The notes below the pieces were generated by a model. The model was not told the origin of the DNA, did no database searches, and saw only the letters and a program-made list of their open reading frames with translations. Positions 3,239-63,032 of a stretch of DNA of 64,000 nt are shown here, piece by piece. This DNA is from Syncephalis fuscata S228 (taxonomy: Eukaryota; Fungi; Zoopagomycota): the NCBI GenBank assembly GCA_025786725.1, contig JAHLTZ010000052.1, positions 46,035 through 110,034 of the forward strand. The letters run 5' to 3'. The translations under genes and the position numbers were made by a program. The stretch's first letter is position 1. The number at the start of each line of letters is the position of its first letter.

Positions 3239-3868
3239 ACGGCTGATGAGCGATGATATGCCATGTGTGTCTGTTATTATACCACAAATATAAATGCTTT
3301 CTTTTAATAAATAAGCGCGAATTATGCCCAAAAGAAGTCAAACTGCCATTTTAGTGTGTATAATCTATCTATAGATTTTTATCTGGATCCTCTAGCGTTT
3401 TATTGTCTACTGTACCCATATTTAAGCAAATCTATCTACAATCTGCGTAACTATATTTCAACTATGCCACAAACTCTTTTAACTGATTCATATACTACAA
3501 CCATTGGATATAACTAATACCAATATGGCGAATTATAAAAAACAATGACATACTACAATCACTGCTTTTTATTTGTTTTGATCATGCATTTTATTTCACA
3601 TTTGTCGATGCAACATTCATGATGTCAGGTGCAGTTAGACAAATAACTCATAATATAGTATTATACTAAACTCTGATTCTTTACGGATTTAAAAACCACA
3701 CTTATTCATCGACATGGCTTCTTGGCAAAAAGATGCATTTAATCAATCCAGAATTAATACCAAATCATTAATAAAAATAAAACAGAATTTGGTTGTTGCA
3801 AATGCTAAATATACAAAAAATGGGAAAACTAATGACACAATCGTTAAATATTTTGAAAAAAGTACATA

Positions 3869-4164
3869 GATTATAGAAAATCCAATTCATGGCCAATATA
3901 TGTAACACTCTACCATGTGCTTGCTGGTAGATTTCCATACAATGATCTACTAAAGGCAATTTTGATTATAGTACGCTTGGTTCTATACTTAAAGAACTTG
4001 AAAGCCAAGAACTATGTGCGCTGCCACCAATATCAGAAGATGCAAAGACACTTAAGACATTGCTGTCATTAATAGAAATAATAAACAATATAGCGGTTTC
4101 TGACCCATCAAAAAGACCAACTTTCGAGAAATATTTGCAGTATGCCAGAGTAAAGATGGCATGA
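3869..4164 (+). pseudogene. Decayed protein kinase, C-lobe remnant
   Basis: DYRKSNSWPIYVTLYHVLAGRFPY (subdomain IX-like), a frameshift near 3950-3960, then IINNIAVSDPSKRPTFEKYL* (subdomain XI); no intact N-lobe upstream. Confidence 0.6.
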
Positions 4165-4432
4165 CTAATAAGTTGGGAAAGAGATCGAATAAACGCCCAG
4201 TTAAAATACATGATTCTATAAATGATACAGCAATAAAAACGCTATTTTTTATATAATCATTATTTATTATTGTGTAAATAATATCAAATACGAGTCATTA
4301 AGTATATCGTATAAAAGATTTAACAGGTTGGTAGCATTTGCACTAATTCGCCTATGCATTTAAGCAACCTGAATATCTAGATGGCCAACTGCGCTTTTAC
4401 TAAAGCACAGCAATGATTGGGCATTATTAGAT

Positions 4433-4939
4433 TTAAATAGAAATGCTGACACTTTTTTGAGCAGAAGTAAGACGAGAGCCGATGTTAATATCGGCACAGT
4501 TTTCGTAGTGCTCAATTTTGCCTGGGCCCAAATGAGCGGCATTCCACACCCAGCGAATGACCTTGCGACCGCTAATACCAGCTGGAATGTTGACGGTCCA
4601 TGGGCCAACCTTGCCTGGAGCAGCACAGTTGTTCTTTTGGGCAATACGACGGGCATTGCCGAGATTAGTGTCTAAGATATAGACCTCGCACATACCGATA
4701 TGTGGAGCAGTGATGGTAAAACCGAGCGTAACGCTGCGGCCCACGTTGGTGACTCGGCCAGCCGGCTCACCACGACAAACGCCTCGAGTGTTGGGATTTT
4801 TCAAATCGTCAATTCTGGTTGATGCTTTTTCGATAGCACGCGGAGTTGGGCTGGACATGTAGCCATGGGCAGCAACATCCGAGATTGCAGAGAGTGCCAC
4901 AATGGCAAACAGGCAGAGAGTGGCACCAATGCGAACCAT
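4433..4939 (-). CDS. Secreted copper-binding LPMO-like protein (His-brace), intronless
   Basis: Signal peptide ending VAA, mature N-terminus HGYMSSPTPR, second His in TITAPHIG, C-terminal WVWNAAH...IEHYENCADI; GC above background. Confidence 0.8.
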   Translation of the reverse strand: MVRIGATLCLFAIVALSAISDVAAHGYMSSPTPRAIEKASTRIDDLKNPNTRGVCRGEPAGRVTNVGRSVTLGFTITAPHIGMCEVYILDTNLGNARRIAQKNNCAAPGKVGPWTVNIPAGISGRKVIRWVWNAAHLGPGKIEHYENCADINIGSRLTSAQKSVSISI

Positions 4940-6254
4940 TTTAATAGCTGACTAGAGGGAAATAGCAGTAGTTTGTAGGGCGACGAATTAGCTGATAGGA
5001 ATAAAAAGATTAAGTTAGTGTTGCTTTCGAGTGTTTTTTGAATCAATCAATATCGATAGCAGAAGAAGTGTTTAAAATCGTTAGACTACTTGAGTGTTAA
5101 TAGCTGAGTAATGAGCGTATGAATGTTATGCGGAACTAGAGAGAAGTATTTTATGACTTTATTTATAGCTTTCCAAGTCCATATAGACATGGCCTTAAGA
5201 TACATTAATAATCCTGCAGCATCAGTAAATAATTGCTCCTGTAGCATAGGCTGTAGAATAGATACATATTACAGTAGTAGCACAAATGGACAATGATGTG
5301 GCTGCTTTTCGTTAGAATACACCAACCGACTCCCGTTCCATCTTGCGACTCCTCTGCAGAAAAGCCGTCGTATTCACTCAGTGGATTTGTAAAACACAAA
5401 ATAGTAAAATGTTTATTCATTTAAGCCTTAACTAGGTAAAACAGCCATTATCCAACCTTGTAAATGGCTTTTAGAGTACTGAGAATAACAAATGGCGTGA
5501 TATGTAAATGTTACATTGATACTATTATGTGGCTGTGGCCAAGGATTTTCATAAAGTGCAGATTCTGATGCAATATGATAATTGTCAAGTTTTTGTGTCT
5601 ATGTTAAGACAGCACGGTACTCCAAGGCCTATATGTTAAAATAAAACTACTGCAACCAGCTTGTTGTATATAATTTGTTCATATTTTACTTACTAGTGTA
5701 TTTTATTTCTATTAAAATACAGGCTAAAAATAAAAAAGCATAAGCACCATTCGAGTATATACTTTTATCCATTATTTTGCTTAGTATTTCAGCTAAATTA
5801 AGCTTTTACTGGACATTGTATTAATTGCTCATATTTGTGTTACAGTGTATTTAAAAAACTGAAAAATATGCCTGTGTAGCTTATAACTTGTTGACGGTAC
5901 ACGGCCCTCAACGGTATTGTTTCCATCACTCGAGGACCATATGTTGGCCCATGATCTCAATAAGCGTATTATTATGGTTTCTTAGTACTACCAAGCCTTG
6001 TGGTTTAATTTGCCCCTTCTACAGCGTTGCACTATATCGGTTCATCTATTTAGCTAATTTTGTAGCCATTAGCCAGTTGAACGTGAACGATTATAATAAA
6101 AGCCAATAATAATAATGGATAGTATTATTGTATTAATACAATTCATAGTATTGCGTTAAGTATCCAAGTTTAGCTACAAGTACCTTTATTACAATTGCTT
6201 GCTTGCTTAAAAGTATAATTAGTAATAATGGTAACACATCTCAAAGTTAAATAG

Positions 6255-6625
6255 GCTGGTATTGCAGCGCTGTAGGATGATTCAATGCACGGTTAACTGA
6301 AACAGGTCCAAATGCTGGTCACTTGCTCAGCCAATGTCTATTCCCGTAACATGGTTTTACGTCGACCAAATAATGGGCAGGACCATGTCATCTGTTCGCA
6401 GGATATCCAATCAGAATGTGACCTCTAATGCCGCCTCTTCGATAGGCTATGCTGCCGTCGCAGTCATTATTAAAACAGCCATTTCGAATATTCGATCAAT
6501 ACACAAATATATTGCGGAGAAGGATATAGGCCAAATGTGTAGCACCTGGTGATCTACAGCAATTGACAGTATGTTCAAACATATCCGAGTTAATACAGTC
6601 TCAGTCTGTACAACTTTTAGACAAG
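6255..6625. pseudogene. Two degenerate, oppositely oriented copies of a distal COG2 exon
   Basis: 6372-6625 (+) MGRTMSSVRRISNQNVTSNA matches 7442-7185 (-) MGRTMSPVRRIPSRNATSSA; 6255-6360 (-) gaccagcatttggacctgtttcagttaaccgtgcat matches ggccagctggtggacttgctacagctgaccgtgcgt; both carry stops or frameshifts. Confidence 0.7.
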
Positions 6626-7089
6626 TGACTATCCTTATTAGCTATATGCTTAACTAAATAGCTAGTTAAGTATAGTAAAAACTCGTTTAATATACTCGCT
6701 ATTATACTAACGATATATTCTATGATAATAACTCTATTGTATTAACACTTTATTATGCACATTATTTACTGATTAATGCGTTCTATTATAACAGTTCTTG
6801 GTGTTAAATAATCATTTATTTTTCATACTACATTCATTGATTTATTACTAATATTTTATCTCAAGTTTTTATACATACTGCTTGTCAAACATATAGCTTA
6901 AAATCTATACTGCTAGTCTTTTTTCTTCTCCTTCACACTCGGCGGCAATGAATAAATGAAAATAAACAAAAGTTATTTGATATCAAAACCGTTATCATAA
7001 TATGTATCATTGGTTATTATTAGTAGTCCACTAGTAGCAAAATGGTAGTTTATTAAAAGTGCAATTGTTTGTCTGGCTTACAATCCAGA

Positions 7090-9528
7090 CTATTGGCGTT
7101 CAGTATCCAAATCTAATTGGTATACTCTAGCCATAAGGGCCTCTTTATAAAACTAATTAGTTAGTTATATAATTATAATGGCAATTACCTACCCAAAAAC
7201 TGTACAGCTTGAGACTGTAGTGACTCTGGTATGGCTGGACGCACGGTCAGCTGTAGCAAGTCCACCAGCTGGCCACGCACCCAGTCTATATCCATCTCCG
7301 TAACTTGTTTACGCACCGACTGAACATCCGAAATAAACGTCTCAGTGGTGGCTACACCGGCAACAGAAACTGCTGGAGAGGTAGCACTGGATGTCGCATT
7401 TCGGCTGGGTATCCGACGGACAGGTGACATGGTTCTGCCCATTATTTTGATTTGCTATTAAGTCTCGTCAGCAGATATCATCTCATACTTTTAGTTACCT
7501 TTTCGTTTTCTATTGTGGTACGAATAGAGGCCTCCGAACACCACTCAAGAAGCCAGGCACCATAACGCAGCATTAACTAGCAATAGTTTAATCTTAATCT
7601 AATAGAAGGCTAATTGTATACAGCATAATAAATACCTGACAAGATAGCTTCCAAAAACGTGCCATTAACGGCGGTAGATTTACTCGATTTGACCAGCATA
7701 GCTCAATCAAAGTTAGCGTGGCAGAAGTAACAGGTAGTATAGGTTTATCATTTTTATCGTATGCCGTATTAGATATATTCATTTGATTACTCTTCAAAAT
7801 TGCTGTCTCCAACATTTCTGTTATTTCATTAAATCTAATCATCGTACTATCCATTAGTAATTGCTTGTATATATTCTAAAGCGTTTTTGTTCTTTACCTG
7901 GCCTCGAAATACTGATCCAACGGCCAATGGCGAATAAGACTGCGCAATGCATTCGCAGCAGTAGAATCTTTTATACATTTAATCCGACTGGATGTATCGG
8001 CCCGTTTCAATAGCCATTGTTGAACTAGTTGATAATGCTAATATTCTACAGTTAAATAAATCAGATCTATATTTAATTATATAAACTACCTCTGAAAATC
8101 GATCCAAATCTTCTAAGCTAAAAAGGAATGGCATTTTCTCTTGTATACCACGTAGAAATTGTGGCCACATCACTTGTGGCAATAATTGTGGATCCTCGTC
8201 TATTATTGGTGTTAACTGATCTAAAAGTGCTTCATAAGCTTCGTCTAACAGCACTGGCAATGGATGTTCGCCCTTCTTTAATGTAGCAACCCGTTTTTCT
8301 GCATAGGATTTTAATGACAAACGCTGGTATCTAATAAGTAACTTTTTGAAATAACTATCATATAGCATCATTTATTACCGTGGATAAATAAGGTGCCAAG
8401 TATTCGGATATCAACAATGTATGGGCTATTGATGATTTGCCTATTTGTTTAAATATTTGATAATACAATATCAATACATCCCATGCTGCCACATGATCTA
8501 CAGACTTGCTATGTTGTACATTGTTTGAAGTATAAATGGTTCGCAGTCCTGATCTTAGTTTTTGAATAATGCTATCACTCAAATTATTTTGTATTTTGAT
8601 CAATCGCTTTATCATAAATATATAAGTAATGCACAGTTTATTATAATCACCATTTTGCCTACCTCGTTCATTTGATCGGCTATAGCATATCCCACTAATG
8701 CTTTACATGTTTGCGATATGTGTTCGTATAGATTGGATGCCCGTTCCAGTGATGTTTCCTGTAAAATAGCATCGCTATACAATATTAATTAGCTTTTTGT
8801 AAAATATGCCACTTTTAAATCTTACACATCATCCGTGCTATTTAGTGATGCCACCTGCTGAACTACCGTTTCGAGCTGATCATATCGTGTGATAGAGTTA
8901 TTAATTGGTTAAGGCGTGTCTATATATCATCCACTGTCATTAAATAAATTTAAACGCTTGTTAAATGATTGCTTACTGATACCAGCTGTTGCTGTCGAAA
9001 TGCTTCCTCTGTACGTTTCCAATTAGTATGAGCACCTTTGATCTGAGCCCGTATATTCTGCCAATAGTAATAGCGACAGAAGCGACAATAACTATCAATC
9101 TACCTAGCCATTTTTGTGCCCTCTATTACTTACCCCTAGACGTTTTTTAATATGCACCGATACTTCTTCCACATCCTGAACTTGAGTTGGAAGGTGTTCT
9201 ACCACGTTAGGAATACGTACAAACTGTTCACAATCCGCGACAATAGTATCGAGTCGACGTTCAACAATATACTCTTCCAGCTTCTCTAATTCGCCGCGTA
9301 GTTCTTCTAAAGAGTGGCGTGGCCGTTGCTTCAAAAAACTTTCAAATTCAAACATAGCAACGAATCTTTAACAGGTAAATGTAATTTCAAGTGACTTGAA
9401 TCTAACAACAAGGGAGCTGGTTTTTCTCGACGTGTCGCAATCTGGTTGCTAACACGAGCATGGTCATTGTCTGTATTGCTAGACGATGAATAACGATTTA
9501 CAGATTGCTTTGACCAATATTCATCCAT
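7090..9528 (-). CDS. COG2: Conserved oligomeric Golgi complex subunit 2-like; multi-exon, with apparent frameshifts and possibly C-terminally truncated
   Basis: N-terminal FEFESFLKQRPRHSLEELRGEL; IRFNEI..LE and CWSNRVNLPPLMARFWKLSCQ resemble conserved COG2 blocks; introns visible. Confidence 0.65.
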
Positions 9529-12500
9529 AACAGTTAATATGACTAAATGAGAGAATTATGGTAACGTCATTAGTATTAAAAAATGGCACTTATGTATCAT
9601 AGATTTATTATCCAATACACACATATTCTCTATTTATCTATATCATTCCTACCGCATGCTCATACTATCCTATATCAGTTATAATACACTGGCTACGCCA
9701 TATTTTATAGGTTTCAAACAAATATAGACCGATGAGTGGAATGAGTTGAAATTAGGTACAGGTTGTTGAGAATAGAACTAGAAATAAACAAACTACAGTT
9801 GCGAGTAAACATCAAATAGTAGTTAGTAGAATGGATATTCAATGGAAAGAGTATAAACAACGTTGATATAGCTGTAGTACATGGAGCGCAATGAGTAGAT
9901 TGCGTAAAGTACATTGCAACATATAGCAAATATAGATGCTGTTATTACTGTTTATTGAAGCATGCTCATTACTAACCAACTATCTATCTTTAATAAACAT
10001 GTAATTTACTATATTTGAGTACAGTATGGCAAAAGTAACAGTGTACAGCGATAGTAGTGTTAGCTAGTTTATGCATGCTAGATTACTATGCATAAGCAAT
10101 AGGTAGCGGAAGCTGTAACACTATGACTTGTTTTGTTAAATAAAGTCAGCCATGTTATGCTTATTTTCTAAAGTCTTTTGTCACTTTTTACTTAATCGTG
10201 CTATCATGTATTTCTATTGTATTTGATTATTCTATTTTCAATTGCTATAAATTATACATGACATATTTAAATTTGTTCTAAACTGTTTATCAAAATAACT
10301 ATGAGATACAGTTTATTTGTTTTTTGCACATATAACAGTTCTGAGGCATGATGATCAGATTTTTTGGGCTACCATCTGGATCGCGCATAAACATTTGGGC
10401 GACAATGTTAGTAGAGTCGTATGAGTAAGCTATTCCTACGCGTAGCTGTCGGAGATCAAATCTGGTTAAAGACACCGACGAGTTAAGAATAAGCCCCACC
10501 AGCACAAATCGCCTTTTTCGTATAATAAAAAATTCAAGTTACAATAAAGTAGTCTAATACGAAAAAGACGATGCAGCAAGGCTGGTGGGCCTTGTTCTTA
10601 AGATAATCGGGAGAGACAGATTTGCCAACTGGCAGCATAAGGAAAGCTTACAAGTACAGCTCTACAAAGCATTGTCGCCCTTTTTTAAAAATGCAAAAAC
10701 AATTGTCATGTCTATGTTATTTTATATTTTGCATGATATTTTGCTTAATATTAATATGCTAATACACTTCACTGGTAGCATGCCACGTCATTTAATACAT
10801 TTACTTGCACTATTGTTAATTAAACAGTAGTATATTAATTATTGTGTATTGCTGAAGTATTTATCGGTGTGGCTATAGTTATATTGTGCCGACCAATAAA
10901 CGTCCACCAATCAAGTAGCTGATGATAGTATTATCAACACGCAACATACCTCAGTATCGAAATAGCCGATCAGTTATTCCTTAATAAAATACCAATTTCT
11001 ATTCTTACTTTCGTTTACTGTGTTGAAAGATGATTGTTAGAATGAGCAGTGTGTTTATAAATTACGCTGCCCCAACGACTATATAAATAACCTATTTTGG
11101 TATCAAGGCTATAATAATATCGTCTTTTTTTATTATTTCATCACTTAACACAATAGCTGTACTCTTGGTTTTTCAATTGCTACTGAAAACATAAGAGTAG
11201 CTGTCTGCTACTACGGTGCTACCTAAGTACGCGTTACAAGTGCAGCTGACTAATCATTCATATAGCTTCCACACCTACACCATCTTTTTCTCTGCCCTTA
11301 AAGTGTTGCAGCCGTATACAGTAGCAAATAATAAACTGTCTATCATGCTTCAAAGGCAACTGTTGCTATACAAGAGCAGATAAACCTTACTATATAACTT
11401 ATTTTGATACGCACTACTTTTTAATTAACAGATACTATTTTTATTTATGTATAAAGCAGCTTCTATTGTCACTATTTTATTTGTAGTAGCAATATTCTAG
11501 TATATCCAACCGTATTGTATAGCTAATCGTTTAGTTATTTACGTATTTATTTATACTTGCTTAGTTATATACGATACATTTGCCCATGCACTATACATAA
11601 CTATTTATTTATATAGTACTACTGTTTTATTATGTCGTACAGCTCAATTGTATATATAGCTGCGTAATGTAGCCATTTACCATTTTATTCGCCTATGTAA
11701 TAATTTATCGATACAATCATTTTGTTGTGTTATATATAGTTGTCCAATTACATCGTATATATTTGAGTTTCTTTATTTTTACCTGTATTTTATTAACAAA
11801 ATAGTGTAATTTAAAGGCTAAATGATTACATTCGATATCATTTGCGTAGTTAAACTACACATTTGTACTATTGAACATGGCACTGGGTAGTGAGCGACAG
11901 CAGTCAGTAAAATACTCATCATCATAGATTCATTATCCAGTACGCATATAGCATTTATTCATATAAATTATCCCCATTATATACCCCATACTATCATAGA
12001 TCATTTTATTAATGCTGGAAGCCTTTTAATTTTTATTTGTTCTAATAAGTTTTGTACATTTCACTTGTTGAATTATATACACAATAAATTCAACGCCAAT
12101 TATCACACTTTTTCAACTGTATGCTCACTATGTTGTATATCGTTTTATATTTGCATAGCTTTGTTTGGCCCAAAGCTGTTTTCCTCTTATTCTGGTTATA
12201 TTCCTAATAAAATTGTATATATTTATACATTTTTATTGATTTGTTCTATGCAAGCTACGGGTTGTTCAGAACCGTTGTTCGTTTAATTATAGCCATATTA
12301 TTAATAAATAGCAACCTATTGAACCCATTAAAATATATGTACTTAAAAGCTATAGCAAGTAAAATGTATTTGATAAGCGTGAAATAATATATAATAATAT
12401 AAAGATATAATGGTACTTATATCAATTTATAAAGTATGTGTGTGTGCAGGGCAATGTTAATAATGATAAGTATATGGTTATTATTTCAATGGTGCCATTT

Positions 12501-40309: not shown

Positions 40310-40825
40310 AATAATTGATACACTTTTTTATTAGTATTTGTGTAGGCTTGTACTGTCAAAACAGCAAAGGAGAAATTATTGCCGCTTTTTTATTAATCAA
40401 GCAACTTTCACCAATTTTTAATTCCATCATTAATATATCTAGAAGTACATGATGCCATTTATTATGACCGCATAGTTTTGATGTATTGACACATATAAGT
40501 CATTTATTATTGAAAAATCATGAAAAGTGCTAAAAATTAAAAGTACTAACAGTTAAAAAGTACTTAAAATGATATTTTAATAATAATATTGCTGTTTTTA
40601 TTTGTGGCAACTTCCAATAATTCTTTAATGTCATCTATATGCGTCGATGTGTCAATACTAAGCGGCTATAATGAATGGCATTACGTATTTATAGATACAT
40701 TACTGATGATAATAAATATTGATGAAAATTCTTTGATTAATAAAAAAGCAGCAACAACTCCTTTTTTGCCACTTTGATAATAAAAGCATATGCAAATACT
40801 AATAAAAAATATATAATGAATTAAT
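40310..40825. mobile_element. Degenerate MITE/foldback-like element with ~195-bp inverted arms
   Basis: 40310-40505 (tttttattagtatttg...gccgcttttttattaatcaa...atgccatttattatgaccgc) is a diverged reverse complement of 40625-40825; no ORF; TSD not identified. Confidence 0.6.
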
Positions 40826-46600: not shown

Positions 46601-46790
46601 CTATTAGTAGACTTAATATTTGGTTTGTTTGTTATTACAACAGATATGTATTACAACAAGTTTATAACCTAGTACATTACAATAATTATGCACTGCAGCA
46701 TGCTGCAAGCACATACCAATACATAATATTATCGTGTGTTGTATCCGCCACTTATATAGTTAGATTAAAATAAAATAGAAAATAAAAATT

Positions 46791-47252
46791 TGTTGAATTT
46801 TATTTATACATCTATACAACCCACTATATGATGATGATTATATTTAAAAATCATTATACTCTCAAATATACACAATTAATATTACCTAACTCTAACTACT
46901 ACACATGTAAACAGGTTTACTAATATTTGTTATGCTTATGGCATCAATAAGCACTCTACAACTTTTAGCACAACTTTACAAATACTTACTAATTGGTTTA
47001 CTTTTCTGTTTTATATATCCAGCATTGCTATAAATACAACAGTAATTATCACATTAAATAAAAGATCATTATTTTATCAAACATTTATTTGCCTTTATTG
47101 TTCTACTCTGGTCCAGCCATAGCAGTTAGTACTATACAATTGTGTAGTTTGTATATCCTAAATTTTAAGTATAGTATACACCAATATACAATTATTGATA
47201 AATATGCAAGTGTACACACAATGTTAGCAGTTGACACAGTTGCTATGATCAT
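46791..47252 (+). repeat. Left arm of the diverged outer inverted repeat flanking the array
   Basis: Reverse complement of 52767-53243, roughly 80-85% identical by eye; mirrored spurious ORFs 47089..47295(+) and 52762..52944(-). Confidence 0.85.
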
Positions 47253-47689
47253 GCAATATCTAACAGCACCATTATTAACCATTATAAGCAAATGAGTGTA
47301 GTAATCATTAACAATTAATCAGTAGACTAATTGTTAGACACAGCATTATTAGTTAATTAACTAATCATAAGCAATAATCATTATTAACCAATTGACTACT
47401 TAATTATTAAACAAATTATTGTTCACTGCTTAATAATTAATGATTAACCAGTAATCACCATTAATTAACTAACTAGCAGATTGACTAATACGGTTGGCTA
47501 CTACTATTAATCAACTACATCGGTTAATTAACTAGGCTAATTAATTAACTAACTGACAAGTATTAAACACCAAGCATTATTAACTAACTATTAAACATCA
47601 ATCATTATTTATTAATTAACTAGCTATTAACTAATATCAAATAAATTATTATTGACTAATTAATTAACTATTAACTGGATTATTAATTA

Positions 47690-47940
47690 ACACAGTTTAA
47701 CTTTATAGTCTATATTCTATTATTAAATAACAAGGGATACCCTTACATTTTTAGTTAATTATTATTGACTAATTACTTAACTTTAGTCTATTTTTATTAT
47801 CAAAATGGCAAGGGATACTCTTGCATTTTAGTTAATTATTACTTAACTTTTATTAATTTTGTTATATTTTATTGTTAAAATGGCAAAAATATCTTACATT
47901 CTAGTATTACTTAATTAAAGTTAATAAAAGTTAAGTAATT
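47690..47940. repeat. Three degenerate ~75-bp subrepeats of the array unit's AT-rich end
   Basis: agtcta..ttatt...aa..caagggata(c)ccttacatttt recurs near 47705, 47785 and 47860, matching 48025-48075 of the unit. Confidence 0.7.
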
Positions 47941-47949
47941 GTTAGTTAA

Positions 47950-50900
47950 TTAACTAATGGTAATGATACCGTTAACAATTTAGTTAACTTGTTAATTAAC
48001 TAATTACTTACTTTTAATTAACTTTGTCTATTTTTATTAACAAAATGCAAGGATACCCTTACATTTTAGTCAAATATTACTTAACTTTTTACTTAACTTT
48101 AGTTCTTTTAATTACTTTTTTAGTCGTATATTTGGTCGATTTTTGTTGGATTTTTGTTGGATTTTTTTGGGAAAAACGGCCCAACTCCCCGTATTTTTAA
48201 TTCCACAGATACTTGTCCTAAAAATACACGGTGCCACTTGTTCGAACCGCAAGAAGCAGGCGCGTCGATCCTGATATGCTAAATAATCGCCAAAAATCGT
48301 GGGAATGCGTGAAAAATACGCGGAGTTGGACCTCCATACAAAAAACGGCACTTTTTGCATGTTTTGATTTTTAAGTCATTGGATAAATTTTTGGCGATTT
48401 TTTGAATATATAGATCAGCGCACCATATTATTGCGGTCGAACGAGTGGTCCTGTGTATTTTTAGATCAATTATCCGTAGAGTTAAAAATACGGGAGTTTG
48501 ATGACTAGTTTATAGTGGCATATTTCACGAAATCCTAAGATATCCCCTATAACCAGCAAACTAGAACTCCCGTATTTTTAACTCTACGGATACTTGCTCT
48601 AAAAATACACAGGACCACTCGTTCGACCGCAATAATATGGTGCGTCGATCTATATATTCGAAAAAATCGCCAAAAATTTATCCAATGAATTAAAAATCAA
48701 AACATGCAAAAAGTGCCGTTTTTTGTATGGAGGTCCAACTCCGCGTATTTTTCACGCATTCCCACGATTTTTGGCGATTTTTAGCATATCAGGATCGACG
48801 CGCCTGCTTCTTGCGGTTCGAACAAGTGGCACCGTGTATTTTTAGGACAAGTATCCGTGGAATTAAAAATACGGGGAGTTGGGCCGTTTTTCCCAAAAAA
48901 ATCCGACAAAAATCCAACAAAAATCGACCAAATATACGGCTAAAAAAGTAATTAAAAGTTAACTAAAGTTAAGTAAAAAGTTAAGTAATATTTGACTAGA
49001 AATGTAAGGGTATCCCTTGCATTTTGTTAATAAATATAGACTAAAAGTTAACTAAAGTTAAGTAATTAGTTAAGTAATTAACAATTAACTAATGTTAAAC
49101 GTTATCAACATTAGTTAATTAACTTAACTAATTACTTAACTTTTAGTTAACTTTTAGTCTATATTTATTAACAAAATAGCAAGGATACCCTTACATTTCT
49201 AGTCAAATATTACTTAACTTTTTACTTAACTTTAGTTAACTTTTAATTACCTTTTTTAGCCGTATATTTGGTCGATTTTTGTTGGATTTTTGTCGGATTT
49301 TTTGGGAAAAACGGTCCCAACTCCCCGTATTTTTAATTCCACGGATACTTGACCTAAAAATACACGGTGCCACTTGTTCGAACCGCAAGAAGCAGGCGCG
49401 TCGATCCTGATATGCTAAAAATCGCCAAAAATCGTGGGAATGCGTGAAAAATACGCGGAGTTGGACCTCCATACAAAAAACGGCACTTTTTGCATGTTTT
49501 GATTTTTAATTCATTGGATAAATTTTTGGCGATTTTTTTGAATATTAGATCGACGCACCATATTATTGCGGTCCGAACGAGTGGTCCTGTGTATTTTTAG
49601 AGCAAGTATCCGTAGAATTAAAAATACGCGAAGTTCTAGTTTGCTGGTTATAGGGGATATTTAGGATTTCGTAAATATGCCACTATAAACTAGTCATCAA
49701 ACTTCACGTATTTTTAACTCTACGGATACTTGCTCTAAAAATACACAGGACCACTCGTTCGACCGCAATAATATGGTGCGCCGATCTATATATTCAAAAA
49801 AATCGCCAAAAATTTATCCAATGAATTAAAAATCAAAACATGCAAAAAGTGCCGTTTTTTGTATGGAGGTCCAACTCCGCGTATTTTTCACGCATTCCCA
49901 CGATTTTTGGCGATTTTTTAGCATATCAGGATCGACGCGCCTGCTTCTTGCGGTTCGAACAAGTGGCACCGTGTATTTTTAGGACAAGTATCCGTGGAAT
50001 TAAAAATACGGGGAGTTGGGCCGTTTTTCCCAAAAAAATCCGACAAAAATCCAACAAAAATCGACCAAATATACGGCTAAAAAAGGTAATTAAAAGTTAA
50101 CTAAAGTTAAGTAAAAAGTTAAGTAATATTTACTAAAATGTAAGGGTATCCTTGCTATTTTGTTAATAAATATAGACTAAAAGTTAACTAAAAGTTAAGT
50201 AATAGTTAAGTAATTAAAAGTTAACTAATGGTTAAACGGTTAACAACTTAGTTAATTGTTAATTACTTAACTAATTACTTAACTTTTAGTTAACTTTTAG
50301 TCTATATTTATTAACAAAATAGCAAGGGATACCCTTACATTTTAGTCAAATATTACTTAACTTTTTACTTAACTTTAGTTAACTTTTAATTAACTTTTTT
50401 AGTCGTATATTTGGTCGATTTTTGTTGGATTTTTGTCGGATTTTTTTGGGAAAAACGGCCCAACTCCCCGTATTTTTAATTCCACGGATACTTGTCCTAA
50501 AAATACACGGTGCCACTTGTTCGAACCGCAAGAAGCAGGCGCGTCGATCCTGATATGCTAAAAAATGCCAAAAATCGTGGGAATGCGTGAAAAATACGCG
50601 GAGTTGGACCTCCATACAAAAAACGGCACTTTTTGCATGTTTTGATTTTTAATTCATTGGATAAATTTTTGGCGATTTTTTTGAATATATAGATCGCGCA
50701 CCATATTATTGCGGTCAGAACGAGTGGTCCTGTGTATTTTTAGAGCAAGTATCCGTAGAGTTAAAAATACGGGAAGTTTAGTTTGCTGGTTATAGGGGAT
50801 ATCTTAGGATTCGTGAAATATGCCACTATAAACTAGTCATCAAACTTCCCGTATTTTTAACTCTACGGATACTTGCTCTAAAAATACACAGGACCACTCG

Positions 50901-52525
50901 TTCGACCGCAATAATATGGTGCGTCGATCTATATATTCAAAAAATCGCCAAAAATTTATCCAATGAATTAAAAATCAAAACATGCAAAAAGTGCCGTTTT
51001 TTGTATGGAGGTCCAACTCCGCGTATTTTTCACGCATTCCCACGATTTTTGGCGATTTTTAGCATATCAGGATCGACGCGCCTGCTTCTTGCGGTTCGAA
51101 CAAGTGGCACCGTGTATTTTTAGGACAAGTATCCGTGGAATTAAAAATACGGGGAGTTGGGCCGTTTTTCCCAAAAAATCCAACAAAAATCCAACAAAAA
51201 TCGACCAAATATACGGCTAAAAAAGTTAATTAAAAGTTAACTAAAGTTAAGTAAAAAGTTAAGTAATATTTGACTAAAATGTAAGGGTATCCCTTGCTAT
51301 TTTGTTAATAAATATAGACTAAAAGTTAACTAAAGTTAAGTAATTAGTTAAGTAATTAACAAGTTAACTAATGTTAAACGGTTATCATTACATTAGTTAA
51401 TTATTAACTACATTAACTATTACTTAACTTTTAGTTAACTTTTAGTCTATATTTATTAACAAAATAGCAAGGATACCCTTACATTTTAGTCAAATATTAC
51501 TTAACTTTTTACTTAACTTTAGTTAACTTTTAATTAACTTTTTTAGCCGTATATTTGGTCGATTTTTGTTGGATTTTTGTTGGATTTTTTGGGAAAAACG
51601 GCCCAACTCCCCGTATTTTTAATTCCACGGATACTTGTCCTAAAAATACACGGTGCCACTTGTTCGAACCGCAAGAAGCAGGCGCGTCGATCCTGATATG
51701 CTAAAAATCGCCAAAAATCGTGGGAATGCGTGAAAAATACGCGGAGTTGGACCTCCATACAAAAAACGGCACTTTTTGCATGTTTTGATTTTTAATTCAT
51801 TGGATAAATTTTTGGCGATTTTTTGAATATATAGATCGACGCACCATATTATTGCGGTCGAACGAGTGGTCCTGTGTATTTTTAGAGCAATTATCCGTAG
51901 AGTTAAAAATACGGGAGTTTGATGACTAGTTATAGTGGATATTTAGAATCGTAAATATCCCCTATAACAGCAACTAGAACTCCCGTATTTTTAACTCTAC
52001 GGATAATTGCTCTAAAAATACACAGGACCACTCGTTCGACCGCAATGATATGGTGCGTCGATCTATATATTCAAAAAATCGCCAAAAATTTATCCAATGA
52101 ATTAAAAATCAAAACATGCAAAAAGTGCCGTTTTTTGTATGGAGGTCCAACTCCGCGTATTTTTCACGCATTCCCACGATTTTTGGCGATTTTTAGCATA
52201 TCAGGATCGACGCGCCTGCTTCTTGCGGTTCGAACAAGTGGCACCGTGTATTTTTAGGACAAGTATCCGTGGAATTAAAAATACGGGGAGTTGGGCCGTT
52301 TTTCCCAAAAAATCCGACAAAAATCCAACAAAAATCGACCAAATATACGGCTAAAAAAGTTAATTAAAAGTTAACTAAAGTTAAGTAAAAAGTTAAGTAA
52401 TATTAACTAGAAATGTAAGGGTATCCTTGCATTTTGTTAATAAAATATAGACTAAAAGTTATAAGTTAATTAGTTAAGTAATTACAATTAACTAAGTTGT
52501 TAAACGTTATCATTACCATTAGTTA
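47950..52525. repeat. Array of eight ~570-bp units in alternating orientation (period ~1,140 bp) with imperfect hairpin junctions
   Basis: The same sequence appears as -,+,-,+,-,+,-,+ (marker ORFs at 48112, 48727, 49236, 49840, 50379, 51005, 51543, 52139); junction centres near 47970, 48530, 49100, 49665, 50240, 50810, 51380, 51948, 52505. Confidence 0.97.
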
Positions 52526-52766
52526 ATTAACTAACTAATTATTAACTAATTAATTATGCTATGCTTAATAATTAGTTTATTGGTTATTTATTAATGATTA
52601 CTACTGATTATTTGTTTATATTGATTAAATAGCACTAATATTATGGTTGGCGTATTAGTGCCATTAGTAACATATGATTGTGCATTGCAGCATTGGCGCT
52701 AGATAATGCATAAACCATTAGCAGTATATATGCTGGACATATCCAATTATAGTGGCGCTAGCTATC

Positions 52767-53243
52767 GTATGATCATAGCAACTGTGTCAACTATTAGCAT
52801 TGTGTGTACACTTGCATATTCATCAGTAATTGTATATTGGTGTATACCATACCTAAAATTTAGGATATATAAACTACGCAATTGTATAGTATTATGTAGA
52901 AGTATAACTGCTATGGTTGGACTAGAGTATAACAGGGAAGACAAATGAGTGTTTGATAAAAGATGTTTTTTATTTGATATGATAATTATTGCTGCATTTA
53001 TAGCAATGTTGGATATAGAGAAGAGAAGAAAGTAAACCGATTATTAAGTATTTGTAAATTTGTGATAAAATGTTGTAGAGTATCTGTTGATGTCATAAAC
53101 ATAACAAATGTTAGCAAATCTGTTTAACATGTGTAATAGTTAGAATTAGGTAATATTACCGTGTAAATTTGAAATTATAATGATTTTTAAATATAGTAAT
53201 CATCATATAGTGAGTTGTATAGATCTATAAATAAATTTTCAAT
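52767..53243 (-). repeat. Right arm of the diverged outer inverted repeat
   Basis: Reverse complement of 46791-47252. Confidence 0.85.
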
Positions 53244-53885
53244 AAGATAGCAGAATATTGATGTATATACAATACTTGTATCTGTAGCTATATCCGTTAG
53301 TATTAAAGCATCAATTGTAATTACCCCCAAGTGCTATGATATGGATTAGAAACTGATTGTCTATCAATAGATCATTGACGCTTTATATGATTTTAGATAG
53401 TTTAACGCTTCATTATATGAGTTGACCAGTATTATAGCAAAACAGCAAATATGTTGTAGTATTTCAAGTGGATAAACACATTTATAATTGATTGATAATG
53501 TATTATTGACATTAAATGCCTATAATACTATTATTGATACACTTATAGTTTGTCGTTATGCTTGAGCGACTATAAAACACTTTATTATTATTTACAATAA
53601 ACAATATGCATTACATGTATGGCTAGTATTGATCTTATAGCCATGACCTTGATGAAGGTGTACGAATAGCAATGCCGAAATTATAGTGCATGCAGCTCAA
53701 TGGAAGAATTAAGTGAAATATATTACTAATGAAGCTACAAACAAACAAACAATAGTTCTTAATAAAGTGTTAATACTTATAATAAAATAGTGTACAAGCG
53801 AATAAGTATATAATAGGAAAGACATAAATAACAGTCGCAAAATCACTGAGCATATATACTTAAATAGATGAGCGATATTAGTTGA

Positions 53886-55324
53886 AATTTTATTAATAAT
53901 AGTGCTAGAAAACAAAAATAAATATACTTTTGGATAGAGGAAGGCTAGGCAATTATAGCATGATATATAAAATGATAAATGTACGGTAAGAAAGTTATAA
54001 AACAACGTTGATGTTATAGTGTGCATAGTGGAATGAGCGGAATGAGTAAAGTATATTGCCGCATATAATAAATAGAATGTGTTTAGTATATCATAGAATG
54101 ATATATGGTAGTGTAGAATAGAGTGGGAATGATATAGGCGAATAGAGGATATATGTGTACTGAATATATGCATCTGATAATAATCTACAATGATGATATT
54201 TGATAACTGATGTCATTCACCACCCATTATCATGTTCAGTAGACTGGATGTTATTAAATATTAGTCATTTAACCACCAAATAACAATAAGTAATGATGTG
54301 ATGATTAAATAAAATTCACCACTTGTTTCCGTGTTCAATAGAACAAAATGTAGTCAACTACGCGAACGTTATTAAAAAAAGTCATTTGACCACCAAATCA
54401 CATTGCATGTAATGATATAATAATTAAACAAATATAATAATAAATGACATGATACACGTTGGTTCAATGAGCAGATGTTATAACAAGGTTATAATTAAAA
54501 ACCAGTAGACTATTGAAAATAGATAATCAGATAAATATACAGTGATATAGAAAACTGTTAAATGGAAAAGAATATAACATGTTGATAACATACAACCAGC
54601 TAGATCATCATATGATTATATAGCTATATGAGTAATTATATGGTATATTGTCAACCAGCTATTTTAACTATTGGACAGGTTAATATACAGCTATATGACC
54701 AACTATAAATATATATATATACAAATAAATAAACAAACAGCTATAAGACTGTATATACCGCACTATAACTAATTTTATTTACTAATAGTTGTTTATTGTT
54801 TAGTGTGATTTGGGGCCCAAATGATTAGTTTTAATAACATTCGCGTAGTTGAACTACATTTTGTTCTATTGAACACGGAAACAAGTGGTGAGTTTTATTT
54901 AATCATCACATCATTACATTTATTGTTATTTGGTGGTTAAATGACTAATATTTAATAACATCCAGTCTACTGAACATGATAATGGGTGGTGAATGACATC
55001 AGTTATCAAATACTCATCATTGTAGATTTATTATCCAGATGCATATATTCAGTACACATATATCCTCTATTCGCCTATATCATTCCCACTCTATTCTACA
55101 CTACCATATATCATTCTATGATATACTAAACACATTCTATTTATATATGCGGCAATATACTTTACTCATTCCGCTCATTCCACTATGCACACTATAACAT
55201 CAACGTTGTTTTATAAACTTTCTTACCGTACATTTAGCATTTTATATATCATGCTATAATCGCCTAGCCTTCCTCTATCCAAAAGTATATTTATTTTTGT
55301 TCTAGCACTATTATTAATAAAATT
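53886..55324. repeat. Near-perfect ~520-bp inverted repeat with ~400-bp spacer (arms 53886-54402 and 54803-55324)
   Basis: For example ggatagaggaaggctaggc..ttatagcatgatatataaaatg and cattttatatatcatgctataatcgcctagccttcctctatcc; only scattered differences. Confidence 0.92.
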
Positions 55325-56339
55325 GACCTATTTTGCTCATGCACATACATATATGTTTAGTAACTTTAACAAGGCTAATCGTCGCTCAACATTGGATATT
55401 TATTATATTGTATATCGCTCCGTTATAATAGCGTCAAAGCTATCCAAAACCGCTGTTTATTTGTCGCTAGCTGTTTTGGCTGTAAAGATCAGCTTATTCT
55501 GTTTATTTTATTCATATATACATCACTATAATGTCAGCACTATTACTCATACCCTTTTCATTATACATTGTTTTGTTTCATATCTTGTTATTCTCGCTTG
55601 GCTATGCACTATTCAAAATCATTTCCCGCTTATTTCTGGTGCTATTATTTACAAGCTGTGACTTATTGCGTTCAGCCCACTCATTGAGCTATATACACTA
55701 TAATCTCAATAACGCTATCCATAGTCTCCTCTGTATATTTGTCCTACTACATATCGTTGTATATTATAAAAGCTGTATATTTGTTACTCGCTGCATTTTA
55801 TATAGTTCAATACAGCTGGTTCATTTCACTGCTATACACATTATAGCTTTATCGCTATCATTCATATATCATCATCCCCCTATTCATTCTACTATATATT
55901 GTAGATTTTAATTCGAGTCATTTAGGTCTGTACATACTGTATGTTTATTCTCTATAGCAAATATATCAATAAATAAATCATATAACTACAGCATATTTTA
56001 ATGTCCAGTAAAATCATTATACGACATTGGAACTAGAATATTGCACTGTTGTTAAACGAGCCTCAAAAAAGTCGTACAAATGTGAAATTCCTAATTGAGG
56101 CAACAGAGCTGCAATTTTCACTTTACAAATGGCTACAAATTTTATTCATTGTCACTAGAAAGCTTTTATCTTTGATTGAATCCTAATTGTGTGCATCAAC
56201 CTTTATTGCATTAGTAGAGTGAGTACGTGTGCAATCACTCATCGTCTTGCTACTCTATCGCAACTCGAGTAAGCGTGTGTATACTCGTATGACCATCCAT
56301 ACAACAACGCCGATACTATAGCAATATAAGGGCAACAGT

Positions 56340-59300
56340 ATGGATAACCGACAAGTAAGTGATGACTCAGGAGGACAATCGCCGCATAGACACTCCCAGT
56401 ACTGACCACGTCCACTGCTAGAGATTGTCTCGTCTATTACTTCGGCGGCTAAAAGAACGAACGCGCGAGCTGAACGACCAACTAGGCAGCCGTGTACTTA
56501 TAACAGGCACCAAAGGTCTACTTATAGATCGCCTACTAACCTATATAATTTCGCTTGAAGAATCTGGATCGCATGAACAGCTACAAAAAACTTGGTCCAT
56601 ACTGGAGCGGTAAGTTGCAAATAACGATGACAACCATCACAGACCCACAACAGTTAGACTATGTCTTGTTAACGATGAATGGTACTGTACAGCGAAGAAG
56701 AAGGACACCAAAGCTGGTCGTCTATGTCAGCGGCTGTTAATGCGCACACAGCCAATTCGCTGTCCACTACATCCAACACCTCTTGCTCGCCGATCCACTA
56801 CGAGCTACTAAATCGGCTAGGCGATGATGCTCATTCGTCGCCATCCTTGCTATCTAGCCAAGGCTATCGACACACAGTTGACTTATCCCGGTATGCAGAT
56901 TCAAACTATATGATGTTCAAACAGCTTGATCTAACAAACAGTCTTATTACACCAATGAATACCAATAGTAGTAGTAGCGCGAATAATGGTACATCACATT
57001 TATCTCTTTCATTTCGTTCCTGTCCGTTCTACACTGATCCTCAGCCACTATCAGATATAGTGTACGCGGAAGGTAAGTAAATAGATATAGCGTATTTATG
57101 TGTCACTAATTGTATCTGTCAGTATCAAATGTTAAAATGACCAGTGTGGCACGATTTTCACTTAATTCGAAGAATATTGAAACATTAACTGGTAGTTCGT
57201 AAGTTGGCATTTACTTATTTGGTGATTATAAAGTTAATAATGGATTTACTAAATAGATATGTACCAAGTCGTAAAACACCAAAATTCTCCTCTCATCGTG
57301 TTATGGTCTACTGCGTTGATGCGGACCAGTGGCGCACCATGCCACATGAGCCACTTTCGTTGGAATTTCCACCTGTAGTTGAATTATCTATTAACCATAC
57401 GGTTATTCGTAAAGTAAGTGTTATAATATGCTATAAACGCTACTAATTATAATACTGTCATTTATAGAATCTAAGAGGCATTAAAAATCGTCCAGGTACT
57501 GTCCATCCGTGGACATTACACCGCACTGCTGTTTGAAGCCAGGTGCTGTTAATCAATTGGACATTTCATATATTAATACACCCAAGGTAACTTACCACTA
57601 TAAGCTAAATAGATATCATATTAATATCAATTAGAAATATGTATTTGTCGTATGCTTGTCAAAAGTAACACAAACATCGGAATTGGTTGATAAGTTAAAA
57701 GGACGGAAACCACTTGAGAAATCCAATGTACAGCAGTTATGTAAGTAACATGTAATTACAACATATCAATTAATGTAATAATTTTATAATATTAATATCA
57801 ATAGTAAATCGAATCGCCAGTGATACCGAAATTACCACCACCTTATCCAATGTTTCTTTAAAATGCCCTGTAAGTTAGCAATAATTGTATTGATTAGTAT
57901 GAACATTTATTGACTATTATCTATAGTTGACCCATATGAGAATACAACTACCATGTCGATCACGAAAATGTCAGCATATTCAATGTTTTGATGCCACATC
58001 ATTTCTTGAATTGAATGCACAGACACCAACTTGGCAATGTCCCATCTGCAATCGATTACTACAGTCATGGAGGAATTGGTATGGGATACGTAAGTGTTAT
58101 TACTAATCATTTATATAATTTATTTACATTCTTTGACTAGCTATTTTAAAGAAATATTAGATAGCACAACCACATCAGTGGACAGTATTGTAATGGATGA
58201 TCAAGGGGAATGGTCAATACGGCCTAATTCAACAGGTGCACGGACATCACCTAAAACGCCCTCTACTCGTCAAGACACCGTTGGAGGAGAAAAAAGAAAG
58301 CGGCTGCTATTTGATATTGAAGATAATTCACTGCCATCTTCACCGACTTCACCTCGTTCTCCGTCATCTTCAATAGCGGGCAATAGTAATGGCGATACTA
58401 GTAACACATCTAATACGGCACAGATCATTGATTTGACGTTAAGTAGTAGCGAGGATGAACTTGAAGATGAATCAGAAAAGGAAATACCAGTATTGAATAA
58501 AAAGTCTAAAGCGACCAACGAGTCTATTTCTATAAAGACGGAATCACAGCTAGATTCAACGGCCACCACTCACGAAAATGGCCACGATAATAACAATAAT
58601 ACTGATGAAAATGAGACTGGCAACCATAGCAGACCTAGTGACTGGATCCGACGGTATCTTGGTGGCTATGTCTCTACGCCATCCAGTTCCTCTACTGCAC
58701 CCACTTCATTGCCAACAACTGTATCAGTAACGGCTGAGGTAGTAGAACCAACTACATCGGCACCAGCACCGGTAGGGACAACAACAACATCTGAACTGTT
58801 ACGTAAATTGAATAATCTTAATGAACGTATTCAACATGCTCGAATACCTGTATCTTCAGTGTCTACAGCGGATGATGTTGCAACAAATGGTATTACAAAT
58901 AATACGGGTGCAACAACACCATCTATTTCACCTACATCGGATACGGGACAGACACAATGGTATTCACCAAATGCATCTCCTTCTTCTAATGCTAATACTA
59001 ATGCTACTACTACTAATACTGCTGAAATGATACCACTTAATACAACTATTCGGCCCACATCACACGGTACAATTACGACAACACTATTGTCATCCACACT
59101 ACCAGTAAATAGAAATGTATTAGATGATCGAGTGACACCGCCCACTAATAGCAGTAATGGCCATCACAGAAATACACCAACTCAGTGGTACACGCCATCA
59201 AGTGATCTGGCACAACGACAACCACAACGCCGTCTATATAACAATACTGACAATGATGGTGGTGCAGTCTACAGGGATAGACTAGAACCGTCCCATCTAT

Positions 59301-59608
59301 CTCTCTATTCAACCCATCCTCGACATCTTTCCTATGATGAATGGTATCGCTGTACATTGCCAACACCTTCATCACCAATAGATAGTCAATTGATAAGTCA
59401 AGGATCTGATATGCTTGCTTATTATTCATCTTATAATAATATAGCAGCATCCAATTCTCATAATACTGATTCATATCCACATCAGTATCAGCGGCCACCA
59501 TTACCACCACAAACAACACAGTCGCAGTCACAACGGTATCAGCAGCAGCAGTATCAGCAGCAGCAACAACCATATCATTCGCAGTATCAGCAACATCACC
59601 GTCAATAG
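56340..59608 (+). CDS. SIZ1: Siz/PIAS SUMO E3 ligase (SAP-PINIT-SP-RING, long disordered tail)
   Basis: SAP-like [59 protein letters not shown]...TWQCPIC, SIM IIDLTLSSSEDE. Confidence 0.93.
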
Positions 59609-62959: not shown

Positions 62960-63032
62960 TGCCTTCTGGCGGAATCGAACCGCCGACCTTCTGCTTACTA
63001 GGCAGACGCTCTGCCAACTGAGCCAAGAAGGC
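62960..63032 (-). tRNA. tRNA-Thr(AGT)
   Basis: GCCTTCT acceptor stem, TGGCTCAGTTGG A box, TCTGC-CTAGTAA-GCAGA anticodon arm, GGTTCGATTCC B box; T5 Pol III terminator at 62954-62950. Confidence 0.96.

Follow-up and report, generated by a model that had tools for sequence, protein, structure and literature searches.

A framed tandem array of palindromic 1.14-kb monomers in Syncephalis fuscata, probably a cassette of a high-copy satellite family

Introduction

In replicons with hairpin ends, such as poxviruses, parvoviruses, and phage N15, concatemer junctions are imperfect palindromes. Inverted arms that are at least 97% identical and are separated by short loops should be unstable. The instability of long, near-identical arms of this kind has been argued in print (PMC5932611), and satellites built from long inverted subunits are termed uncommon, a beetle case being the most prominent one reported (PMC13081366). 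The major satellite of Tribolium brevicornis, TBREV, has a monomer of 1061 bp with inverted segments of ~470 bp, and TmSat2 of T. madens has a monomer of 704 bp with imperfect inverted halves of ~300 bp (PMC13081366, PMC5737470, PMC6780895); the cassettes of both have conserved inversion or transition zones and a variable number of repeats (PMC13081366).

Three further systems bear on inverted repeats in fungi. Inverted-repeat amplification that is origin dependent (ODIRA) produces, in budding yeast, inverted triplications of segments that bear genes and contain an origin, and the unique flanks stay in their original direction (PMC4689423, PMC10766183); a loop spacing under 100 bp is the range for template switching (PMC10766183). 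In AMA1/MATE of Aspergillus nidulans, two inverted copies of a repeat form a palindrome with a short spacer between them; this single 6-kb inverted pair belongs to a low-copy dispersed element and has replicator activity that has been shown (PMC8954384). The centromeres of Komagataella phaffii lie in gene gaps and consist of inverted arms of several kilobases around a unique 1-kb core, are unrelated to one another in sequence, and have a middle that is flipped by recombination between the arms (PMC5010909). Here we describe an array of inverted units in a 64,000-nucleotide stretch of a Syncephalis fuscata contig (the window). In our literature search no such repeat was found described for Syncephalis or Zoopagomycota, nor was any paper matching the architecture, and a search on extragenomic linear palindromes and fungal hairpin plasmids found nothing.

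Results

Anatomy of the array

Eight cores of ~470 bp (467 to 472 bp between fixed anchors) alternate strictly in orientation (Table 1), the count of eight being that of the assembly alone. In pairwise comparisons they differ at 2 to 26 of 476 columns (mean, 13.4; ~97% alike), and many of these differences are homopolymer indels. The first-pass annotation had described eight near-identical, noncoding, alternating units joined by two kinds of imperfect palindrome, and the core coordinates, the gaps, and self-alignment confirm that description. The head-to-head gaps (78, 78, 78, and 70 nt) each hold one asymmetric spacer of ~65 nt (A), and the tail-to-tail gaps (115, 122, and 125 nt) hold an AT-rich imperfect palindrome around a loop of ~20 nt (B). 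Exactly these two junction types occur, both of them interrupted inverted repeats that can be folded into imperfect hairpins, and the position within the unit is the same for each of the four A junctions and each of the five B junctions. The A spacers run X, Y, Y, and X-mixed, orientations that come from the assembly alone and with a mixing that the polishing of palindromes can yield. In loops A4 and B2 the two orientations look mixed, which may be a product of polishing, since palindrome reads map both ways.

The same-strand period is 1131 to 1145 bp, giving four monomers head to tail, each of which consists of two long, inversely oriented subunits and is itself a palindrome. The array aligns with its own reverse complement at 94% over 4702 columns, far beyond chance, and the computed fold of the monomer 3 region (50240-51385) is a single DNA hairpin in which 96% of bases are paired. 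The contrast with ordinary head-to-tail satellites that had been drawn at first pass thus dissolves, because the array is head to tail at the level of the 1.14-kb palindromic monomer. The edge units carry more substitutions (nine in unit 1 and eight in unit 8) than five of the six inner units (one to three); the sixth, unit 3, carries nine, partly from one shifted indel. Variants are shared among the eight units in neither a mirror nor a tandem pattern (mean differences, 14 for mirror pairs, 12 across A, 8 across B, and 13.4 for all pairs), and the variants therefore do not tell the mechanism by which the array grew.

Table 1. Coordinates of the array and its frame within the window
Feature	Position	Strand	Remark
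Left outer arm	46790-47276	+	Inverted partner of 52745-53246
Left inner frame, AT-rich	47277-47949	+	Decayed copies of the unit's AT-rich end; 72-84% to unit ends
Edge B loop B0 and partial returning arm	47950-48025	+	Polarity opposite to that of right edge loop B4
Monomer 1	48026-49041		Unit 1 (+), A spacer 1 (orientation X), unit 2 (-)
Unit 1	48026-48492	+	
Unit 2	48571-49041	-	
Tail-to-tail junction B1	49042-49156		AT-rich imperfect palindrome
Monomer 2	49157-50177		Units 3 (+) and 4 (-) around A spacer 2, which is in orientation Y (X reverse-complemented)
Unit 3	49157-49628	+	
Unit 4	49707-50177	-	
Tail-to-tail junction B2	50178-50299		Symmetry axis of the whole array; loop seems of mixed orientation
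Monomer 3	50300-51319		Unit 5 (+), A spacer 3 (orientation Y), unit 6 (-)
Unit 5	50300-50771	+	
GC-richer 317-bp module, example	50462-50778	+	Once per unit; inverted arms of ~115 bp, ~80% alike, with a 90-bp core
Unit 6	50850-51319	-	
Tail-to-tail junction B3	51320-51444		Axis crossed by one soil-metagenome contig placed at 51184-51440 (X5 record 19)
Monomer 4	51445-52452		Unit 7 (+), A spacer 4 (X at ends, mixed middle part), unit 8 (-)
Unit 7	51445-51913	+	
Unit 8	51984-52452	-	
Edge B loop B4; right inner frame (short)	52453-52744	-	Lacks the 78-bp subrepeats of the left side
Right outer arm	52745-53246	-	From self-alignment

A frame of nested inversions

Palindromes occur at three nested levels, namely, an inverted pair inside the unit (~80%), the monomer, and the outer arms. 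The latter, of ~480 bp, make 46.79-53.25 kb one large foldback (46796-47276 against 52745-53238, 83.5% over 497 columns of self-alignment), and no target-site duplication was seen by eye at their ends (46790 and 53246). At the innermost level, the 317-bp module folds with a z score of -12.4, none of 100 shuffles being as good, and has an observed/expected CpG ratio of 1.63. The GC content of the frame (0.24 to 0.27) is the lowest in the window, and its left inner part contains 2.5 copies of a 78-bp subrepeat at 47697-47886 (TRF period, 78). A B loop caps both edges of the array, in opposite polarity and with a partial arm (B0 scores 45 against the reverse complement of B4 and 18 on the same strand); no unamplified A site was seen. 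In the left frame, the decayed unit ends suggest that the array likely grew in place and speak against a recent insertion from outside. The outer arms, these decayed ends, the inner inverted pair, and the opposed edge loops had not figured in the first-pass annotation.

The array lies at least 11 kb from both ends of the window, within a gap of ~12 kb (43.7-56.2 kb) that holds no recognizable gene. Other long noncoding, foldback-rich gaps occur in the window, for example, at 38.6-43.1 kb, as do other long-armed foldbacks, one of them 640 bp from the frame (53886-55324, 96%). A similarity between the outer arm and the arm of this neighboring foldback was not accepted, 4 of 200 shuffles being as good in one orientation and 126 of 200 in the other.

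Within the monomer, no ATG-started frame is longer than 78 amino acids; both array frames and both outer-arm frames submitted to Pfam were without a match, and Rfam found nothing in the array and only a tRNA elsewhere in the window. Long frames under genetic code table 6 were dismissed, as they arise solely from the removal of two stops. Scans with two motifs gave no matches among viral contigs, a motif scan of prokaryote genomes gave none, and distant blastn searches of plasmids and phages found no match. Three loci returned by a motif scan of metagenome contigs were all attributed to chance, the match being confined to the motif within unrelated DNA of 44 to 57% GC.

Abundance in sequencing runs

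Among the 24 runs listed, 23 hold the stretch whole or in part, and 4, from one sample, hold at least half its words. Contigs were placed for four of the 24 (X1, X5, X6, and X24), and the remaining small-share soil and rhizosphere runs were not counted as evidence. X1 is possibly the sample from which the assembly was made, and its DNA may have been amplified, the library type not being on record; X24 comes from a different sample and study. Abundance is given as summed contig depth, a rough measure that yields no copy number, from contig records that average 45 bp. In X1, this depth is 591 to 10086 in ten array bins against 8 to 10 in unique left-flank bins, and in X24 it is 103 to 4015 over the array, where the copies have diverged (545 of 689 placed contigs are <95% alike). 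By this measure the depth of the unit exceeds that of the flank by a factor of tens to thousands in two samples, each from a different study; depth over the unit had been proposed at first pass as a check, and it is raised against the flank in both X1 and X24. An estimate of ~75 to 2300 units per flank copy is so wide because of the shortness of the records from which the depth was summed. The fraction of contigs continuing into unlike DNA was 0 for X1 (8015 placed) and 0.03 for X24 (689 placed), a test limited by the short records. High depth together with a near-absence of foreign flanks indicates that the unit is likely high copy and organized in arrays, not dispersed; a free pool would give the same picture.

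The ratio of the depth of the unit to that of the neighboring foldback is 41 in X1 and 2.4 in X24, and the left outer arm has a single-copy depth of 7.9 across the left end in X1 and a summed depth of 37 to 110 in X24. Variants of the left inner frame are deep in X24, with one contig of depth 442 at 47580 and another of depth 491 at 47763; the right outer arm is almost uncovered in X1, a hole that proves nothing. The soil metagenome run X5 holds four contigs of the unit at a depth of 2 to 3; neither the outer arms nor the unique flank has any. One of them, of 294 bp, has three other letters and three gaps relative to the unit; one across a B axis has 13 other letters and 14 gaps and could stem from an array edge; and one over an A spacer stops ~4 to 6 letters into the returning arm. 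Further edge forms (X5 record 16, an X1 joint of 47431-52787, and an X1 loose end at 47275) are as for cassettes at several loci or alleles. None of the runs was listed as RNA; X6, which we guess to be RNA and which shows one spliced joint, has two listed low-depth pieces in the array and is uninformative on expression.

Discussion

The locus shares its build with the palindromic satellites of Tribolium, to which we liken it by architecture and not by sequence. As TBREV and TmSat2 are described, they and the present array consist of tandem noncoding monomers, here of ~1.1 kb, with two long inverted subunits and two spacers, show dyad symmetry at several nested levels, and have a conserved frame around the repeat array. 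The host here is a fungus, and the assembled array occupies only 4.6 kb in a gene gap and not megabases. The arms of TBREV are reportedly ~82% alike. In TmSat2 the halves are described as imperfect, whereas the arms here are ~97% alike, as much so as any two units and probably more after sequencing error. We therefore favor, at somewhat better than even confidence, a noncoding tandem array of 1.14-kb palindromic monomers in older inverted arms, most likely a chromosomal cassette of a high-copy satellite family that was likely seeded by fold-back at the two imperfect palindromes and likely lengthened two units at a time, through unequal exchange or re-integration of a 1.14-kb circle. The depth points to arrays at further loci in the genome, and its excess could instead represent a free pool.

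We suggest that an early inverted duplication would have produced the inner 317-bp module, the arms of which would since have drifted to ~80%, and that a later fold-back at the A spacer would have produced unit-A-unit' inside a frame that is itself a foldback. The B loop at both edges, an interrupted inverted repeat, could then have given rise to a repeatable monomer by a second fold-back or by loop-out, with subsequent growth by two units per step along either of the above routes, and recombination among monomers and among arms would keep the units ~97 to 99% alike and would flip the loops. The likeness of the units (97%), set against that of the inner (~80%) and outer (83.5%) arms, is as expected if the unit was homogenized after the older inversions. 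No function of the unit beyond that of a selfish or structural repeat is shown.

That laboratory handling or assembly created or multiplied the alternation, through phi29 fold-back, unsplit fold-back reads, or a collapsed repeat, we consider highly improbable. Unit differences that are largely homopolymer indels, the mixed look of loops A4 and B2, the unrecorded library type of X1, and a depth far above eight copies, so that the array may have been collapsed or given a wrong size in the assembly, all speak for such an origin, but the A and B junctions sit at constant unit positions, with genomic sequences that other runs also have in their contigs; the family in a second sample is diverged and just as deep; the soil metagenome holds the unit, an A spacer, a B axis, and an edge; and the array, well inside the window, merges at both ends into decayed relatives of the unit, which an amplification artifact would not produce. 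A pure MDA or adapter artifact is unlikely for the unit and loop sequences, the copy number and order of which come from the assembly alone; independent sample support for the internal junctions is thin, coming from one run (X5). Geometry lends itself also to an extrachromosomal element that maintains itself, either as a 0.57-kb linear DNA with hairpin caps or as the 1.14-kb circle of its inverted dimer; host enzymes would do the copying, and the array would be its chromosomal source or an integrated concatemer. As in hairpin-ended replicons, there are two imperfect palindromic junction types, and in the assembly the loops appear in both orientations; the repeat graph is closed, with very high depth and almost no foreign flanks; and relative abundance differs greatly between samples. 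Artificial dog-bones are described as giving inverted dimers that integrate in yeast (PMC4689423), and the AMA1 replicator, a fungal inverted duplication like ours, forms multimers (PMC8954384), although the pair here measures 1.14 kb, is tandemly repeated and high copy, and is known from sequence alone. Unlike hairpin-ended replicons, the array, known here from contigs, encodes no polymerase, Rep, resolvase, or protelomerase, a role that a host or helper enzyme could fill; it had no match among viral contigs, plasmids, or phages; and its embedding in decayed unit ends and old outer arms fits long chromosomal residence. By our own inference, repeated doubling via a single hairpin would give spacers in the order X, Y, X, Y and rolling-circle replication X, X, X, X, neither of which is seen, and the mixing of loops can arise by polishing; the ODIRA authors expect dog-bones to be transient (PMC4689423). 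We accordingly judge such an element unlikely, and equally so its fuller form, a protein-free minimal replicon in which host enzymes, starting at a nested-palindrome origin, would copy a 0.57-kb hairpin-capped DNA and its 1.14-kb inverted-dimer circle, and these would cycle in and out of framed chromosomal cassettes and so build the satellite. The first-pass annotation had offered a hairpin replicon or a palindromic satellite; the satellite is the better supported, its build being known outside fungi, and the replicon has nothing positive beyond geometry, given the lack of a protein and the decayed copies in the frame. Its suggestion of an ODIRA-like origin holds for loop spacing, which is under 100 bp at both A (~65 nt) and B (~20 nt), but not for copy number and flanks: instead of an inverted triplication between unique flanks in their original direction, there is an even number (eight) of small noncoding units between mutually inverted flanks, and these belong to a shared high-copy family and not to a fresh copy-number variant.

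Two other readings were considered. The monomer could be a nonautonomous foldback transposon whose terminal inverted repeats measure 500 bp and for which one site, the B junction, was the target of repeated insertion. Terminal inverted repeats are present, long-armed foldbacks recur in the window, including the close neighbor, a short terminal motif is common to both outer-arm ends and the left end of that neighbor (four hits in the window against 0.67 expected, for a motif picked post hoc), and tandem insertion is described as a known route to satellites (PMC5932611). Contigs of the unit, short as they are, almost never enter unrelated flanks, however, the outer ends lack a target-site duplication by eye, the edge B loops are of opposite polarity and not direct repeats of a target site, and the unit has no similarity to the arms of the neighbor (174 and 182 of 200 shuffles score equally well), which makes this origin very unlikely. 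We are doubtful, too, that the cassette forms all or part of a centromere, with cruciform-prone nested palindromes in an AT-rich gene gap recruiting the kinetochore and at least one cassette per chromosome, a reading that is compatible with the satellite and is drawn from sequence context only. The gene-free gap and the GC minimum of the frame would suit a centromere, inverted-repeat centromeres are known in Komagataella (PMC5010909), and the dyad-rich satellites of Tribolium have been proposed to be centromeric (PMC13081366). Against this, the window has other long noncoding, foldback-rich gaps; between the arms, where Komagataella is described as having a unique core, lies a repeated, palindromic, high-copy array; and no long open reading frame like that of the retroelement Grem-LINE1, as reported for Mucor (10.1101/706580), lies nearby.

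In summary, the array provides a concrete candidate for the unmapped centromeres of the phylum. The minimal replicon, if real, would represent the dog-bone intermediate, transient in yeast, in a naturally stable and heritable form, and would supply a ready replicator to fungi of a group for which vectors are lacking. As a satellite without a role, the array would be a curiosity of repeat evolution. With its near-perfect arms and short loops, this fungal example raises the question of how a genome keeps hundreds of cruciform-prone palindromes, and it offers natural material for testing whether satellites can be seeded by hairpin-capped intermediates.

Results

The array of eight alternating units with two junction types that the first-pass annotation described was borne out by alignment of the cores and by the anatomy of the junctions. 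Eight cores of 467-472 bp occupy 48026-52452 in strictly alternating orientation and differ pairwise at 2-26 of 476 columns (mean, 13.4). One asymmetric spacer of ~65 nt (A), a decayed hairpin, lies at all four head-to-head junctions, and an imperfect, AT-rich palindrome (B) around a ~20-nt loop lies at the three internal tail-to-tail junctions; its loop stands at both array edges as well. Units on the same strand recur every 1131-1145 bp, and the array can thus be read just as well as four palindromic monomers in head-to-tail tandem; in a computed fold, a single monomer forms one DNA hairpin in which 96% of its bases are paired. No test that was run detected coding potential in the array. The A spacer changes orientation along the array in the order X, Y, Y, X, and both A4 and B2 resemble mixtures of the two orientations; this order appears unreliable, since reads of a palindrome can map in either direction, and the number of units is less certain than their alternation.

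Every unit contains a GC-richer module of 317 bp with two ~115-bp arms that are ~80% alike (fold z = -12.4); the copy at 50462-50778 is CpG-rich (observed/expected, 1.63). Decayed copies of the AT-rich unit end, a 78-bp subrepeat among them, occur in the left inner frame, and the two edge loops, B0 and B4, are of opposite polarity, so that 46.79-53.25 kb constitutes one large foldback, at the ends of which no target-site duplication was seen. CpG is absent from the left outer arm and occurs five times in the right.

This cassette occupies a gap of ~12 kb that has no recognizable gene and is followed by a putative PINIT-domain (SIZ/PIAS-like) gene; run X6 has a 67-nt GT..AG skip within it (56355-56421). 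Foldback-type DNA is abundant in the window, and the separate element adjoining the cassette is deep in sequencing runs X1, X6, and X24. A short AT-rich motif marks both outer-arm ends and the left end of the neighboring foldback (46793, 53242, and 53882) and recurs at 12093 (four hits versus 0.67 expected in the window, for a pattern picked post hoc). The sole near-exact copy outside the cassette (1 mismatch) of a 17-nt stretch from the unit's AT-rich end, at 11788-11804, adjoins a foldback fragment. The nearest named relatives of the chitin-binding gene belong to S. fuscata (≤73%), other Syncephalis, and Thamnocephalis, which makes the host a Syncephalis-like zoopagalean; two matches are to Pochonia and Purpureocillium.

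Features of the window outside the unit array
Feature	Position	Strand	Remarks
Chitin-binding/LPMO_10 gene	4433-4936	-	Small, secreted-looking; several Syncephalis paralogues in family
Decayed long inverted repeat	6368-7447		67%
Fragments related to separate foldback	near 9.6, 11.8-12.1, 41.9-42.5, 45.8-46.0 kb
Decayed long inverted repeat	40324-40809		71%
Outer arms, inverted copies	46796-47276 / 52745-53238		83.5% identity
Separate foldback element	53886-55324		Inverted 520-bp arms, 96%; 400-bp center
PINIT-domain gene	56169-59608	+	Weak Pfam match
tRNA gene	62960-63032	-	One

The window was compared with contigs of four runs (X1, X5, X6, and X24) out of 24 listed. In X1, possibly the sample from which the assembly itself was made, depth was ~8-10 on the unique left flank versus 591-10086 across ten array bins and ~19,900 when summed per unit base; the excess is given only as bounds, ~75-2300 units per flank copy, because contig records average 45 bp and overlap, and summed contig depth is not copy number. 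The share of the 8015 matching X1 contigs that continued into unlike DNA was 0. In X24, which carries the same species label and comes from another sample and study, the unit family is deep yet diverged (545 of 689 contigs <95% alike; share continuing into unlike DNA, 0.03), and frame variants are as deep as the unit. Between 44000 and 56500, 160 of 197 listed X24 changes were C>T or G>A relative to the window, whereas X1 and X6 were balanced; on repeats, the changes in this one sample carry a directional, deamination- or RIP-like signature. The soil metagenome X5 yielded five contigs, one on an unrelated repeat and four on the unit family (depth, 2-3). A 294-bp contig joins a unit to the entire A spacer (3 other letters, 3 gaps) and ends 4-6 letters into the returning arm, another spans the B3 axis by ~55 letters (13 other letters, 14 gaps; it could be an edge form), and another links a unit end to a left-frame variant.

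Discussion

The array is real. Contigs of X1, X24, and X5 show that the unit, the A and B loops, and the junction with the frame occur at high copy beyond this assembly, and an artefact is very improbable; for strict alternation inside the array, the main support comes from the assembly and from the closed repeat graph of X1. We somewhat favor reading the array as a chromosomal satellite whose monomer is a palindrome. Against it, the evidence comes from one locus of the genome, variant sharing among units does not show how the array grew, and a free pool could account for the excess depth (unit-to-foldback depth ratio, 41 in X1 and 2.4 in X24). Such a pool would suit a free hairpin replicon, and poxviruses, parvoviruses, and N15 serve as comparisons with hairpin-ended DNA; viral, prokaryote, plasmid, phage, and JGI metagenome collections yielded no relative, and we consider a replicon unlikely. 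A centromeric role for the cassette in its gap without a recognizable gene, also unlikely though marginally the better prospect of the two, is compatible with a satellite. A tandem foldback transposon is improbable.

Under the satellite reading, an old inversion would have produced the inner module, and fold-back at A would have generated unit-A-unit' within the foldback frame. The B loop would have allowed a second fold-back or a loop-out, later growth may have added two units per step by unequal exchange or re-integration of a 1.14-kb circle, and recombination would have homogenized the arms. The spacings of the A and B loops lie within the limit of <100 bp that holds for template switches in yeast (PMC10766183), whereas the array, with its even number of units and inverted flanks, departs from the triplication pattern of ODIRA (PMC4689423).

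In searches of open-access literature, neither this repeat nor a fungal satellite of such build was found described. AMA1 (PMC8954384) and the centromeres of Komagataella (PMC5010909) and Mucor (10.1101/706580) are more distant comparisons than the Tribolium satellites, and routes from transposon to satellite have been reviewed (PMC12628747, PMC5932611). The closest build to the Syncephalis array is that of the T. brevicornis satellite, 1061 bp with inverted segments of ~470 bp (PMC13081366), together with T. madens TmSat2, whose cassettes have transition zones that are conserved and dyad symmetry at three levels (PMC13081366; PMC5737470, PMC6780895).
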